A stretch of DNA of 5,824 nt. It comes from a virus (taxonomy: Duplodnaviria; Heunggongvirae; Uroviricota; Caudoviricetes). The stretch is taken from IMG/VR virus record IMGVR_UViG_2711768049_000003. One strand, written 5' to 3'. A program made the translations under genes and the position numbers. Positions within the stretch are counted from its first letter, which is position 1; each line of letters opens with the position of its first letter. The notes beneath the pieces are model-generated. The model was not told where the DNA came from and ran no database searches. It was given only the letters and a program-made list of their open reading frames with translations. Of the stretch, positions 1 to 5,769 are shown in pieces.

Positions 1-3000
1 TCTTCTGTCCGGTTGCTGATTCAGCTTGAGCGTAGCGGGCACTGGGTGACAGAGAAGGATATCACCATTAACGGTAAGACCACCTCGCAGTACCTGACGT
101 CGGTGATAATCGGTAACCTCCCTGAGCGTCCCTTTAATATCCGGATAGTCAGGGAGACGGCGGACAGTACCACGGACCAGCTGCAGAACAGAACGCTCTG
201 GTCGTCATACACCGAAATCATCGATGTGAAACAGAGCTACCCGAACACAGCCATAGTGGGGCTGCAGGTGGATGCGGAGCAGTTCGGTGGGCAGCAGATG
301 GCGGTGAACTACCATATCCGCGGGCGCATCATCCAGGTGCCGTCAAACTATGACCCGGAAAAACGTACATACAGCGGTATCTGGGACGGGACTCTGAAAC
401 CGGCATACAGCAACAACCCGGCCTGGTGTCTGTGGGATATGCTGACGCATCCACGTTATGGTATGGGAAAGCGCCTCGGGGCCGCGGATGTGGACAAGTG
501 GGCGCTCTATGCCCTCGGACAGTACTGTGACCAGCCGGTTCCGGATGGCTTTGGTGGTACAGAACCCCGTATGACCTTTAATGCGTACCTGTCACAACAG
601 CGTAAGGCGTGGGACGTGCTGGGGGATTTCTGCTCTGCAATGCGCTGTATGCCGGTATGGAACGGACAGACGCTGACGTTTGTTCAGGACAGACCATCGG
701 ATGTTGTCTGGACTTATACCGCCGGTAATGTGGTGACGGGGGAGGATGGGGTAAGTTTTCATTACAGCTTCAGTGCCCTCAAGGACAGACACACGGCAGT
801 TGAGGTGAATTACACCGATCCGCAGAATGGCTGGCAGACATCGACTGAACTGGTGGAGGATCCGGATGCCATACTGCGCTACGGACGCAATCTTCTGAAG
901 ATGGATGCGTTCGGCTGTACCAGCCGTGGTCAGGCTCACCGGGCAGGCCTGTGGGTGATAAAGACCGAACTGCTGGAAACACAGACAGTGGATTTCAGTG
1001 TGGGGGCGGAGGGACTGCGTCACACGCCGGGCGATATCATTGAAATCAGTGATAATGCGTATGCCGGTACCGTGATCGGCGGGCGGATCCTGTCCGTCGA
1101 CAACGCCAGCCGGACCCTGACGCTTGACCGTGAAGTCACTCTCCCGGAAAAGGGCACATCCACGGTGAATCTGATAAACGGCAGTGGTAAGCCGGTGAGT
1201 GTGGATGTTACCGGGCAGCCATCACCTGACAGGATACAGATCAGCACACTGCCTGACGGGGTGGTGGAACACAGTATCTGGGGGCTGGCATTGCCGGGAC
1301 TGCGCCGCCGTCTGTTTCGGTGTGTGGCGATCCGCGAAAATGCGGACGGTACCTTCGCCATCACGGCGGTGCAGCATGTGCCGGAGAAGGAGGCCATCGT
1401 GGATAATGGTGCCACCTTTGAGCCGTTGTCCGGTTCGCTGAACAGTGTCACACCTCCGGCAGTACAGCATCTCACGGTGGAGGTAAGCGCGTCTGACGGT
1501 CAGTATCTGGCGGCGGCGAAATGGGACACGCCGAGGGTGGTGAAGGGCGTGCGCTTCAGTCTGCGCCTGACCAGCGGAACCGGTGAAAACAGCCGTCTGG
1601 TGACCAGCGCCATCACCGCCGACACGGAGCACCGTTTCAGTGGCCTGCCGCTGGGGGAATACACCCTGACGGTCAGGGCGATAAACAGCTATGGCCAGCT
1701 GGGGGAGCCTGCCACCACCACGTTCCGGATTAACGCACCGGCAGCACCTGCCACCATTGAACTGACCCCCGGCTATTTCCAGATAACAGCAGTGCCGCGT
1801 CTTGCGTTGTATGATCCGACGGTACAGTTTGAATTCTGGTTCTCAGAAAAACGCATCACGAACACGGCACAGGTGGAAACGTCCGCCCGTTATCTGGGGA
1901 CCGGCAGCCAGTGGAGCGTCTCCGGCTCGCACATTAAGCCAGGGACAGATTTCTGGTTTTATGTGCGCAGCGTCAACCTGGTGGGTAAATCCGTTTTTGT
2001 TGAAGCAACCGGACGGGCGAGCAATGATGCGGAAGGTTATCTGGACTTTTTCAAAGGAGAAATCGGGAAGACACATCTGGCACAGGGGATGTGGGAGCTG
2101 ATTGATAACAGTCAGCTTGATGATGAGATGGCGGAGATGAAGACCACCATCACAGAAACCCGCAATGAAATCACACAGACGGTCAATAAAATCCTGGAAG
2201 ACCAGAGTGTCACCATACAGCAGATACAGCGTGTGCAGAAGGAGACGGATGACAGCCTGAGCGCACTGTACATGCTGAAGGTGCAGAAAACGAAAAACGG
2301 TATTCCGTATGTTGCTGGTATTGGTGCGGGGATTGAGGATGTTGATGGCCAGACCCTGAGCAATATTCTGCTGCAGGCTGACCGTATCGCGATGATTAAC
2401 CCGGAGAACGGCAACACCACGCCGCTGTTTGTGGCGCAGGGGAATCAGTTGTTCATGAACGACGTATTCCTGAAGCGGTTGTTTGCGGTGAGCATCACCT
2501 CGTCCGGCAATCCCCCTGTGTTCTCCCTGACGCCGGAAGGCAGGCTGACGGCCCGTAATGCGGATATCAGCGGAAATATTAATGCGAACTCTGGCACGCT
2601 CAATAATGTGACCATTAACCAGAACTGCCGGATTCTGGGAAAACTGTCTGCAAACCAGATTGAAGGTGACCTGGTCAAAACAGTGGGGAAAGCTTTCCCA
2701 CGGAATAACAGTTATGCCAGTGGCACTATAACGGTCACCGTTTATGATGACCAGGGCTTCGACAGGCAGATCATCATTCCACCGGTACTGTTCCGGGGGG
2801 CGAGACATGAGCACCAGTCCAGCAAAGATCACACTTCAACATGGTATTCCACGTGTCAGTTACAGGTGCAGATGAACGGAAGGGTAATTTTTCATGAGCC
2901 GGCAACGGATGTCACCCGGGTGTTTTCGTCCGTCATTGATATGCCGGCAGGACGGGGTCATGTGACCCTGACGTTTAATGTGTGGTCGAACGGGGTGAAC

Positions 3001-3081
3001 CACTGGACGCCGACAACATACATCAGTGATTTACTGGTTGTGGTCATGAAAAAATCCACGGCGGGTATCAGTATTTCGTGA
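1..3081 (+). CDS. J: Lambda J-like central tail fibre / host-specificity protein, 5'-truncated by the window edge (C-terminal ~1027 codons present)
   Basis: Reading frame is open from nt 1 with no stop until TGA at 3079-3081; the listed ORF 13..3081 begins at an internal TTG, so the real start lies upstream of the window. The translation reads like lambda J-family proteins from memory, with fibronectin-III-like beta-rich repeats in the middle (e.g. [27 protein letters not shown]...[28 protein letters not shown]) and a distinct C-terminal ~250-aa domain. Position directly upstream of a side tail fibre gene fits lambdoid synteny. Confidence 0.88.
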
Positions 3082-3278
3082 ACATGATGACCGGAATTGC
3101 CGGAAGGATATAAAACCGTACAGTATGCGCGGGTGCCTTTGGCTGATGGCCGGAGGGAACACCTGAAGGCCTGATGTGAAAAGGCCCCGAGTCAACTTCA
3201 ATGTTAACCCGAGGCCCTGAACCGTCTACCTTAAGCAAGTGGCAGGTTAGCGCCTCTCCGTAATAAGGAGCAAGTTCT

Positions 3279-3389
3279 GTGTCGCAAAAACCGTTAAAAA
3301 CCACCGTGATTTGTATCACGGTAGTGCTCATTATCTGGATCACCCACAGTTCACTGTGTGAATTCCGGTTCCGGATAGCACCTTTTTAA
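3279..3389 (+). CDS. Candidate small membrane peptide (36 aa), Hok/Gef-family-like type I toxin, possibly C-terminally shortened
   Basis: GTG start at 3279 lies 8 nt after a consensus Shine-Dalgarno AAGGAG (3265-3270). Translation is (M)SQKPLKTTVICITVVLIIWITHSSLCEFRFRIAPF, stop TAA at 3387-3389. It has a ~15-residue hydrophobic core followed by a polar/charged L-C-E-x-R-x-R motif, resembling Hok/Gef as recalled (Gef ...VICITAVVAALVTRKDLCEVHIR...). It is too short for the ORF track and about 10 residues shorter than canonical Hok proteins. Confidence 0.4.
   Translation: MSQKPLKTTVICITVVLIIWITHSSLCEFRFRIAPF
3284..3322 (-). terminator. Possible minus-strand hairpin plus T-tract (candidate antisense-RNA terminator or mRNA structure)
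   Basis: Perfect 8-bp inverted repeat ACCGTGAT (3303-3310) / ATCACGGT (3315-3322) with a 4-nt loop. On the minus strand the stem is followed by GGTTTTTAACGGTTTTT (complement of + 3284-3302). No flanking minus-strand gene is evident, so function is uncertain. Confidence 0.22.
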
Positions 3390-3410
3390 TCCTGTAAACC
3401 ACGATTTTTA

Positions 3411-3444
3411 CCGCAGACCGGGAAACCGGCACTGCGGTTTTTTT
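3411..3444 (+). terminator. Rho-independent terminator (hairpin plus T7 tract) at the end of the J-stf intergenic insert
   Basis: CCGCAG (3411-3416) pairs with CTGCGG (3432-3437), with an inner CCGG/CCGG extension, and is followed immediately by TTTTTTT (3438-3444). It sits 22 nt after the small ORF stop and 13 nt before the stf ATG. Confidence 0.7.
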
Positions 3445-3457
3445 ATGGGGAAAATCT

Positions 3458-4864
3458 ATGGCAGTCAGAATATCGGGTGTGCTGAAGGACGGCGCGGGGA
3501 AGCCGGTACCGGGATGCACAATAGAACTGAAAGCGCGACGCACCACAGAAACGGTGATTGTCACTACGGTGGCATACGGGCAGCCGGGGGAGACAGGCAG
3601 CTACAGTATGGATGTTGAACCGGGGCTGTACCGTGTGACCCTGAACACAGAAGGGCGTATGCCGTCATACGTCGGTGACATTCTGGTGAAGGCGGACTCT
3701 GCACCGGGAACACTGAATAAATTCCTGATGGACTTTGAGGATGCGCCATATTATCCGAAAGCCCTCGCTGAGCTGGAAGCGGTGGCTGCGGAAATACTGA
3801 AGCGTGCTGAAGCCTCCGCAGCCAGTGCAGAGGAGGCCAAAAAACGGGCAGAGAATGCCAGGGGGCCGAAGGGTGATAAAGGTGACCCGGGACCGCAGGG
3901 GGTACAGGGACCGAAAGGTGAGACAGGTGCAACCGGGCCACAGGGTGAGCGTGGTGCAACAGGGGCACAGGGTGTTCCGGGCCCCAAAGGGGATACCGGA
4001 GCCACAGGACCTGAGGGTAAAGCCGGTCCTGTGGGACCAAAAGGTGACAGGGGGGACACAGGGCCCAGAGGTGAACGGGGTGAAAAGGGAGAGAAAGGAG
4101 ATCCGGGTGGCCCTCCAGGGCCAAAGGGAGATCCGGGACCACAGGGGCCTGCCGGGCCTCAGGGAAAATCAGGCAGCCTTGAAGATATTACAGACAGGGA
4201 AGCTTTCATCCGTGAGCTTGGTGTGCCCAGAGCATACGGGCGTGACATTTCAACCGGAGCAGGTGAGTGGACGACAGAAGAGTTTGTTGCCTGGCTGAAA
4301 GAGCAGGGGGCATTTGACCATACCTGCTGGATAATGAAGGCATCACTGCCAGCGGCGATGAATAAGGCCATCACTGATGTCGGACCGGGGAAACTCAATC
4401 TGGGCGGCTGTACCATTGAAGTGATGGGAACATATGACGCCGCCATTGTACGGGTCACCATTGGTGAATACGGTGCAACGGGGTTTATTAATGGCACGGT
4501 CTGTACCTGTACGGTTTATGGCGATACCCGGAAATACCACTGGCGGGTGGATTACGGTACCAGGAATAAACCCACGACGGCGAGTCTGGCTGTCAATGGC
4601 TGGGAACGTGATGAGGCTACCGGACGGATGCGACAATGGGGTACGCTTGTGATAAGTGAATCCGATGGTCAGGCGTTATCACTGCACTCCATCCGTTTTC
4701 CGGTGGTTTTTCCTTCAGCAGTGCTGAATGTTCAGGTTTCTCCGGTGGGGGAGCCCGGGAAAATTCCTGGATACACTCTGTCCTCACCGTCATTGCAGTC
4801 GGTGACACTGAGGACTGTCAGAGGAACCTCCGGTAAGTTTTTCTGGGAAGCGACCGGATACTGA
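3458..4864 (+). CDS. stf: Side tail fibre protein with lambda Stf-like N-terminal domain, central collagen-like Gly-X-Y tract and a distinct C-terminal (putative receptor-binding) domain
   Basis: ATG at 3458 preceded by GGGGA (3447-3451). The N-terminus [28 protein letters not shown]... closely resembles the lambda Stf N-terminus as recalled ([26 protein letters not shown]). An Ala/Glu-rich helical segment is followed by 34 Gly-X-Y triplets (aa 136-239), then a ~230-aa Gly-poor C-terminal domain. Stop TGA at 4862-4864. Confidence 0.9.
3863..4177 (+). repeat. Collagen-like Gly-X-Y coding repeat (27 uninterrupted triplets, a one-residue register break at GG, then 7 more)
   Basis: Translation G136-S240 of the stf ORF reads [104 protein letters not shown]. 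The DNA shows the matching GGN-rich 9-bp periodicity, which also produces the spurious minus-strand ORFs here. Confidence 0.9.
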
Positions 4865-4873
4865 GGAGGGATT

Positions 4874-5098
4874 ATGGAGCGTTATATTTTTTCACCGTCC
4901 GCGAATATGTTTTATCCGGCCTCCCTGCGTGCCGTTTACGAGACTACCGGAAACTGGCCTGTGGATGGTATAGAGGTGGACTATGCCGTGTATAAAGTTT
5001 TTGCAGCGGATGCTGCACCGGCGGGCATGAAGCGGGGAGTCGGTACGGAAAAAATGCCGGTCTGGGTGCCGGTATCGGAAGAGGGCACGGGAAAATGA
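4874..5098 (+). CDS. Small protein (74 aa) resembling the N-terminal domain of phage tail fibre assembly (Tfa) proteins
   Basis: Very strong Shine-Dalgarno GAGGAGGG (4863-4870) overlapping the stf stop, ATG at 4874. The translation MERYIFSPSANMFYPASLRAVYETTGNWPVDGIEVDYAVYKVF...AP.GMKRGVG...PVWV fits the conserved N-terminal pattern of Tfa proteins as recalled (FYPA-L---Y---G-WP-DG--V ... P-GK-R-G ... P-W). Its stop TGA (5096-5098) overlaps the next ATG in an ATGA junction. Confidence 0.75.
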   Translation: MERYIFSPSANMFYPASLRAVYETTGNWPVDGIEVDYAVYKVFAADAAPAGMKRGVGTEKMPVWVPVSEEGTGK

Positions 5099-5769
5099 TG
5101 CATGTCAGAAATTTTTCGTATTACACACCGGCAGAGCCGGATGTGGCGGGTGCGATATACCTGAAATCTGAGGATGGTCAGGACTGGTATGAATGCCATT
5201 CCAGGTTTGCGGAAGACACGCTGAAGGTGGTGTATGACAGCCGTGGTGTGATTACGGGATATGGTAAGGACATTAAGTTGTTGTGGCCGGTGAACCAGAG
5301 TGTGGCTGAAGTGCCGGACGCACCGGAAAGCCTGAAAATTGACCTGAGCGGACGCTGGGGATTTGACGGGGAAAAAATCACCGACCTGCTGACGGCTGAC
5401 AGAGCACGTGAACAGAAGGGGGCAGAAATAAATGCCTGGCGAAGTGCCATGGAAAATGCGGAGTATGTGTTTGAGTACAATGGACGGAAGTGGGACTACG
5501 GCAAGGTGACTCAGGTTCGTCTTGAGCCGTCGGTGGCAGCAGCAAAAGCGGGAATACTGCCGGAGGGATTTTTCTGGACAGATGCAGAAAATAATGACGT
5601 GCCGATGACAGCGGAGGCTTTGATCGCGCTCAGCGCCGCGGCAGAAAAGGCGATGTTTCAGAAAGGGATGGAAATCCACGTTCGCCAGCGCATGATGAAG
5701 AAAGAGCTGGAAAAGCTGACCAGTGCGGATGAGATACTGGCATATAAGGTTGGCTGGGCACAGGAATAA
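5095..5769 (+). CDS. Tail fibre assembly / chaperone-like protein (224 aa), N-terminal region resembling the P2 gpG / Mu U family
   Basis: ATGA overlap with the upstream ORF indicates translational coupling; same strand and operon as stf. Residues ~20-95 (IYLKSEDGQDWYECHSRFAEDTLKVVYDSRGVITGYGKD...SVAEVPDAPE) match the recalled P2 gpG/Mu U N-terminal pattern (W.WSEDGKNWYEE...DTIKIVYD...SVVEVPDI). The C-terminal half does not show the typical Tfa C-terminal ...PDIEWP motif. Stop TAA at 5767-5769. Confidence 0.75.
   Translation: MMHVRNFSYYTPAEPDVAGAIYLKSEDGQDWYECHSRFAEDTLKVVYDSRGVITGYGKDIKLLWPVNQSVAEVPDAPESLKIDLSGRWGFDGEKITDLLTADRAREQKGAEINAWRSAMENAEYVFEYNGRKWDYGKVTQVRLEPSVAAAKAGILPEGFFWTDAENNDVPMTAEALIALSAAAEKAMFQKGMEIHVRQRMMKKELEKLTSADEILAYKVGWAQE

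Follow-up and report, generated by a model that had tools for sequence, protein, structure and literature searches.

How is a gene expressed that begins only 13 nt beyond an apparent intrinsic terminator, and what might a terminator be doing at such a place? The question is raised by a 5,824-nt stretch of DNA (IMG/VR record IMGVR_UViG_2711768049_000003; hereafter the window), whose source is a complete lambdoid prophage that E. coli M3 carries between its potB and potC genes. The window opens with the 3′ part of the tail-tip/host-specificity gene J (13–3081, plus strand, 1022 codons in the window), recognized by Pfam matches to Ig_J, Ig_GpJ_C, Phage-tail_3 and Phage_Tail_Tip and annotated in RefSeq as gpJ in the identical M3 prophage. 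The side tail fibre gene stf follows on the same strand (3458–4864, 468 aa; Pfam phage_tail_N, Collagen and Gp53-like_C). Two further co-oriented genes (4874–5769, plus strand), placed by ORFs, Pfam and RefSeq, encode a 74-aa tail protein and a 224-aa protein with DUF4376 and weak Caudo_TAP matches, which is tail-fibre-assembly-like; we propose for both the same dependence on transcription from upstream as for stf.

The start of stf is secure, because phage_tail_N aligns over its full length (1–134 of 134; 2e-40) from the ATG at 3458 and the RefSeq gene of the identical prophage begins there too. A GGGG at 3447–3450, 7 nt before this ATG, is the putative Shine–Dalgarno (SD) element, and GGGG or GGAG occupies the equivalent position at other types of stf junction. 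Between the N-terminal domain and the Gp53-like C-terminal domain the Stf protein carries a collagen-like Gly-X-Y segment (PF01391, residues about 136–250). We also observed an out-of-frame ATG directly 3′ of the terminator T-run that opens a 57-codon ORF (3445–3618) overlapping the stf start; many other junction types have ATG or GTG at the position equivalent to 3445.

The candidate terminator (3410–3438, plus strand) is an interrupted, GC-rich hairpin with 11 pairs. An outer stem of seven pairs joins ACCGCAG (3410–3416) to CTGCGGT (3432–3438), and an inner stem of four pairs (CCGG with CCGG) closes a GAAA tetraloop, the two being separated by an internal loop with A on the 5′ side and CA on the 3′ side. 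A tract of seven Ts (3438–3444) is contiguous with the stem, its first T being able to pair with A3410, and the 13 nt from there to the stf ATG (3445–3457) read ATGGGGAAAATCT. The RNA hairpin is predicted to fold with −19.1 kcal/mol (z = −4.24), the minimum free energy structure accounts for 80% of the ensemble, and none of 200 dinucleotide shuffles folded as well. The complementary strand folds with −20.6 kcal/mol and is followed by UAAAAA, without a U-run; the terminator is therefore predicted to be unidirectional. When the whole predicted hok mRNA is folded (see below), the pairs of the hairpin have probabilities above 0.96 in every state, and in the read-through RNA the hairpin still forms, adjoining the stf ribosome binding site (RBS).

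A consensus-based scan of the window for promoters and terminators did not list the 3410–3444 site, because a bulge and an A·C mismatch (3418:3430) interrupt its stem and leave the inner part with no more than four pairs. The same scan returned five other weak terminator-like sites, no more than in shuffled sequence. When a site was required to have a T-run of at least 5 nt and a hairpin of −10 kcal/mol or better no more than 2 nt upstream of it, exactly one plus-strand site was found in the 5,824 nt, at 3410–3444. The five weak sites illustrate that chance patterns do occur, and one might suppose the hairpin to be a chance inverted repeat beside a T-run, devoid of terminator activity. We consider this almost certainly wrong: the z-score and the shuffles speak against it, as do the single hit of the energy-based scan, the conservation of the hairpin in 48 loci and the recurrence of a terminator-like structure at the same position in nearly all junction types (both described below). 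By its anatomy, then, the hairpin is supported as a genuine, strong-looking Rho-independent terminator. The original prediction of a GC-rich hairpin with seven Ts, 13 nt before the stf ATG, was borne out by fold, shuffles and energy scan. Its further remark that the last Ts overlap the spacer at the stf RBS was not: the T-run ends 2 nt 5′ of the GGGG, so that it abuts the RBS and lies outside the SD–ATG spacer.

With so short a gap, stf would have to be transcribed either from a promoter overlapping the terminator or through it. The first alternative, in which a promoter that overlaps the hairpin or lies immediately 5′ of it serves stf and no read-through is needed, could appeal to one weak 7/12 σ70-like match at 3426–3455 (CCGGCA-18-GAAAAT), the sole one there; the −10 element of this match, however, ends 2 nt before the ATG, which would place the transcription start within the stf coding sequence. 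No 9/12 match was reached anywhere in 3082–3457 by the consensus scan, and a relaxed σ70 scan of 3060–3470 found no usable promoter 3′ of the predicted hok promoter. Moreover, 26 of the 29 junction types, whose upstream sequences are unrelated, have a gap of about 11–17 nt between T-run and ATG. An own promoter for stf is thus very improbable, and the claim that there is no room for a promoter between terminator and start codon held in the scans.

Read-through by a Q-modified polymerase is the other route. Such a polymerase is highly resistant to intrinsic terminators across the late operon, and in ancestral lambda an equivalent terminator does not prevent stf and tfa from giving side tail fibres. 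In the M3 prophage a gene for a Q-family antiterminator (PF03589, 172 bits; 34672–35493 of the prophage sequence, L088) lies upstream of, and is co-oriented with, the lysis, head and tail genes, J, hok and stf, through to the DUF4376 gene, as the original prediction had expected of a lambdoid context. An ompC porin gene is inserted into the tail region of the same prophage, on the strand of the late operon, and a second hok-family gene, hokD, lies upstream of Q (9853–11016 and 37374–37529, respectively). Given the 13-nt gap, the lack of a usable promoter in the scan and the co-oriented Q, read-through by Q-modified polymerase is the only evident route to stf, and we infer that it is the one used. 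For lambda it is established that the late transcript requires Q and that lom–stf–tfa lie at its distal end (PMC10695390).

What, then, lies upstream of the terminator? Between the J stop (3081) and stf there is an insert of 376 nt (3082–3457). By its sequence matches it is a hokW-type hok/sok type I toxin–antitoxin locus, of which the hairpin is the 3′ terminal element. A 36-aa ORF with a GTG start (3279–3389, plus strand) is a truncated hok toxin gene: it matches Pfam HOK_GEF (PF01848) with 27.8 bits against a cut-off of 22, RefSeq labels it ‘Hok/Gef family protein’ in E. coli M1 and M3, where the region is 100% identical, and relatives in phage records are labelled "MokW-like host killing". 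A candidate hok mRNA leader (3131–3292, plus strand) matches the Rfam sok/hok leader family RF01794 over its full length (1–157 of 157; E = 3.3e-5), with a score of 34.9 bits that lies below the gathering score of 59. The mRNA opens with GGGUGCC (3131–3137), a tac-like element.

A predicted hok promoter (TTGCCG-16-TACAGT, 3097–3124, plus strand) is the best plus-strand match of the relaxed scan (8/12); its +1 would fall at about 3131, at the GGGUGCC that opens the Rfam match. It is kept in aligned relatives whose J ends differ, and hokW of phage 933W has TTGCCC-17-TAAATT at the equivalent position. Downstream of this promoter and of the hok ORF, the 3410–3444 site is the first and only terminator-like site. 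On the minus strand, a 16-bp hairpin (3218 to 3181) followed by UUUU (3180–3177) is probably the terminator of a Sok-like antisense RNA (3177–3218); it folds with −32.1 kcal/mol (z = −4.57) and sits inside the hok leader, as in hok/sok architecture. The relaxed promoter scan did not place a Sok promoter with confidence. A leader ORF of 20 codons (3201–3263, plus strand), taken from the ORF list, would be mok-like by analogy with mok (PMC9841398); it ends 16 nt short of the hok start and extends over the SD of hok, AAGGAG. A second minus-strand hairpin with five Ts (3296–3325, −15.4 kcal/mol) runs antisense to the coding part of hok; read on the plus strand, its inverted repeat gives a hairpin conserved in the hok mRNA, CCGUGAUUUGUAUCACGG.

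In systems of this kind a tac/fbi fold-back holds the full-length hok mRNA inert until its 3′ end is processed (PMC9841398), and for hokW–sokW of Sp5 both Hok toxicity and its neutralization by Sok have been demonstrated (PMC8621323). Alignment with two full-length relatives (L002 and L003) reveals that the window has suffered a 103-bp deletion flanked by the direct repeats CCGGATAG and CCGGATGG, with its junction and an fbi-like remnant, GCACC (3378–3382), at 3371–3382 on the plus strand. With the deletion Hok is cut to 36 aa (46 aa in intact relatives), two hairpins of the 3′ UTR are lost, and so is the greater part of the 3′ segment that pairs with the mRNA 5′ end. In the two full-length relatives nt 1–17 of the mRNA pair with a 3′ segment ending in GGUCAGCCGGAUGGCACC with a probability of about 1.0; in the window, because most of that partner is gone, the probability of the fold-back is 0.05, and the fold-back typical of hok/sok is lost. 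In the window hok starts with GTG, where the majority of intact copies have ATG, and LZSFT34, a close relative, has lost another 10 bp from the hok ORF. Judged by sequence, the locus is a degenerate member of the hok/sok family, with toxin domain and leader still recognizable and the fold-back gone. Neither the origin of the hairpin as the end of a hok mRNA nor the partial deletion of hok formed part of the original prediction.

A survey covered 80 IMG/VR stf loci. The 48 loci that have a hairpin of the window type comprise 32 with intact hok, 6 with the 103-bp deletion, 8 reduced to deletion scars and 2 that could not be classified; the hairpin is present in 48 of 48 and is always accompanied by hok or a remnant of it. 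Distinct variants have T-runs of six to eight Ts, with the exception of L035 (TTTTGTT). Across the eight distinct variants of the hairpin 99% of pair cells are standard pairs, the sole exception being the A·C of the window itself (3418:3430), which makes the window hairpin the weakest of the family (−19.1 versus −21 to −24 kcal/mol in relatives). Covariation within the family was not significant (51 of 500 shuffles reach the observed score) and is uninformative, because the sequences are 93% identical.

Since hokW of 933W, which lies away from stf, has a different 3′ end, we considered that the hairpin might be linked to stf and not to hok. For the window type this was rejected: two seemingly hok-less loci (L053 and L065) turned out to be scars of hok deletions, with the promoter and the 5′ sequence GGGTGCCTTTGA fused to GGCACCC, followed by about 30 nt and the same hairpin. 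The hokW locus of 933W was likewise rejected as the source of the hairpin, as its 3′ end differs and stf does not adjoin it. The scars (L053 1395–1487; also L065 and six more) consist of a promoter, a hairpin of 5′ GGGUGCC with GGCACCC, and the terminator, and they predict a 93-nt two-hairpin transcript resembling a small RNA.

The decay bears on a further reading, that the hairpin is a vestige, formerly the terminator and 3′ stability or processing element of the hok mRNA, which has no present role for the phage and survives only because it has so far escaped deletion. The state of hok in the window (the 103-bp deletion, the GTG start, the fold-back probability of 0.05) would suit this, as would the destabilizing A·C mismatch, absent from intact loci, and the extra 10-bp ORF deletion of LZSFT34. 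Against it stands the pattern of loss: the hairpin and its T-run are kept in 14 of 14 decayed loci (6 with the deletion and 8 scars of about 93 nt), and at least two independent deletions took away internal sequence but spared the terminator. The sequence comparison is clear that the terminator is retained while the hok toxin decays repeatedly. Every other junction type, insert-free ones included, has an unrelated hairpin and T-run in the slot before stf. The persistence of the hairpin in decayed loci, together with the filled slot in other junction types, argues that the slot is under selection, and we rate a functionless vestige as quite unlikely.

The slot was examined in 29 distinct (dereplicated) stf junctions. 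A hairpin with a T-run ending 1–25 nt 5′ of the ATG is found in 26 of them; elsewhere in the surveyed loci the same detector reports 0.171 sites per kb, which corresponds to 0.0043 expected per 25-nt slot. At least seven unrelated hairpin sequences fill the slot, after hok, after lom (two types, including that of lambda) or after J directly. Even junctions free of an insert have a terminator there: in L076 the J stop and stf are 57 nt apart, in L080 42 nt. In lambda (NC_001416, about 19608–19638) the lom stop is followed by the hairpin AGCCCGCCGG..CCGGTGGGCT, six Ts, 11 nt and the ATG of stf (orf-401). A terminator abutting the stf RBS is, as far as these sequences go, the norm at the boundary of J and stf in lambda and its relatives and no peculiarity of the window. 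L060, with a terminator of the lom type, and L053, with that of the hok scar, have an identical stf 5′ region (TTTTTTTTATGGGAGAAATCTATGACAGTC, last 30 nt), which puts the mosaic boundary between insert and stf at the T-run.

Immediately behind the J stop the survey brought out another conserved hairpin, GGGCGCCAGAAATGGCGCC with a T-run, with GC/AU compensatory variants and a loop inversion in L078. It was seen in L060, L069, L075, L077, L078 and L086, about 690–800 nt 5′ of stf, and in lambda (L006, 214–238); in L076 (1459–1485) this post-J hairpin itself abuts stf. The L076 hairpin (GGTGCC...GGCACC plus six Ts) had been entertained as an extreme tac:fbi scar of hok; this was dropped, because the same hairpin, with GC/AU variants, is found right after J in lom-bearing phages, which makes it the J-proximal terminator.

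A rival reading gives the terminator a different role, in which it acts mainly on late transcription, as a partial attenuator or as an RNA 3′-end or processing hairpin, and is no lysogenic insulator; it would lower the expression of side tail fibres relative to J, or stabilize the upstream J message. Terminator-like hairpins between J and stf in L076 and L080, where there is no insert, fit this reading. So do the two hairpins of lom-bearing phages (one after J and one after lom) and the persistence of the hairpin beside the stf RBS in the read-through RNA. Q-modified polymerase, however, resists intrinsic terminators, so that attenuation should be small, and for hok, lom and scars alike the terminator would stop transcripts from a plausible promoter upstream. 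On balance a role mainly in late transcription seems unlikely to us, if less so than a mere vestige.

We return to insulation from the insert, which the original prediction had proposed together with read-through. Transcripts of hok would stop 2–3 nt before the stf RBS, a position that supports an insulating function. There is lysogen-active transcription to insulate against, since northern blots detect hokW mRNA in lysogens of the related prophage Sp5 that were not induced (PMC8621323). In the window itself there may be little lysogenic transcription left to stop, as the hok promoter is only an 8/12 match and the locus has decayed. Nor can insulation from an insert be the whole rationale, because the insert-free L076 and L080 also have a terminator before stf. 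Probably the slot serves a general purpose as well, be it strict Q-dependence of stf–tfa, the 3′ end of the J message or a module boundary.

The arrangement has much of a moron, defined in HK97 and HK022 as an insertion with its own promoter and factor-independent terminator that is expressed from the repressed prophage (PMC3594210). The insert separates J and stf by 376 nt, genes that are adjacent, with a gap of 42–57 nt, in L080 and L076; it has a clear terminator and a predicted 8/12 promoter conserved in relatives, and relatives are expressed from the repressed prophage. It differs from such units in that its GC content has no contrast to that of its neighbours, its cargo is decaying and the slot is filled even where there is no moron. 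No break in base composition was seen at the insert (GC 0.49–0.50 in the insert, 0.50–0.54 in J and 0.56–0.63 in stf).

The closest parallel is lom–stf of lambda. There too a lysogen-expressed insert between J and stf is closed by a GC-rich hairpin and T-run abutting an SD-like GGGG, and there too stf must be reached by read-through of the late operon. The two differ in the sequence of the hairpin, which is unrelated, in the insert, which is lom (an outer-membrane protein) in lambda and hok/sok in the window, and in a second small hairpin with T4ATTAT directly after J, which the window lacks. For the lambda late operon, Luk and Szybalski (1983) reportedly described terminators in tandem beyond J.

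With hok/sok of plasmid R1 and hokW–sokW of prophages Sp5 and 933W the window shares the Hok/Gef peptide, a leader resembling that RNA family (below its gathering score) and a probable antisense terminator within the leader (PMC9841398, PMC8621323), as well as a terminal hairpin and U-run that would end the mRNA; the 5′/3′ fold-back is shared by the intact relatives of the window. The window differs by its truncated toxin and the lost fold-back. Its terminal hairpin lies about 23 nt 3′ of the fbi-like element and doubles as the stf boundary, whereas in 933W hokW follows lom, away from stf, and has a different 3′ end without a hairpin of the window type. In the literature searched we found no discussion of the J–hok–stf arrangement, which is annotated in RefSeq and in phage 1720a-02. 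The layout being that of a classical moron in a lambda late operon, the feature itself is ordinary.

Taken together, the explanation that we consider likely is that the hairpin is the 3′ terminator of a hok/sok moron, which insulates stf in the lysogen and is read through by Q-modified polymerase after induction. In the lysogen, host RNA polymerase would start at the weak promoter of the insert (about 3097–3124, +1 at about 3131) and the hok transcript would be released in the U-tract at about 3443–3446, before the stf RBS, which would leave the tail-fibre genes silent. In intact relatives the same hairpin would end the full-length hok mRNA, the 5′ end of which would fold onto the 3′ element just 5′ of the hairpin. 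After induction, polymerase from the late promoter, modified by Q, would read through the terminator, as at lom–stf of lambda, and transcribe stf with the two genes behind it as the last part of the late operon. The read-through and insulation model proposed for this site is thus supported in silico, and no testable part of it was contradicted.

A more far-reaching joint reading, to which we give rather little credence, is that the terminator before stf is a selected gate, independent of any insert, and that sense-oriented hok loci are in addition switched on by Q read-through. Such a switch is conceivable for a gene that, like hok, is located within the late operon and has the same orientation. 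At intact loci, Q-driven transcription coming through from J might suppress the convergent Sok promoter or give a hok RNA without tac/fbi closure, and either event would turn the toxin on late in infection. After induction sokW falls and HokW rises (PMC8621323), and a late switch-on of hok would explain both changes. If the reading were true, expression of side tail fibres would depend strictly on Q-modified polymerase, the terminator would mark an exchange point for the stf–tfa cassette, and lom or hok inserts would have to bring such a terminator, or land 5′ of one, to be tolerated.

For annotation, the terminator would mark the true 3′ boundary of the hok/sok remnant. For the biology of these prophages, it would explain how tail-fibre genes stay unexpressed in the lysogen although a lysogen-active unit immediately precedes them, and the decay of hok with its terminator kept would illustrate both the moron model and selection on transcriptional insulation.
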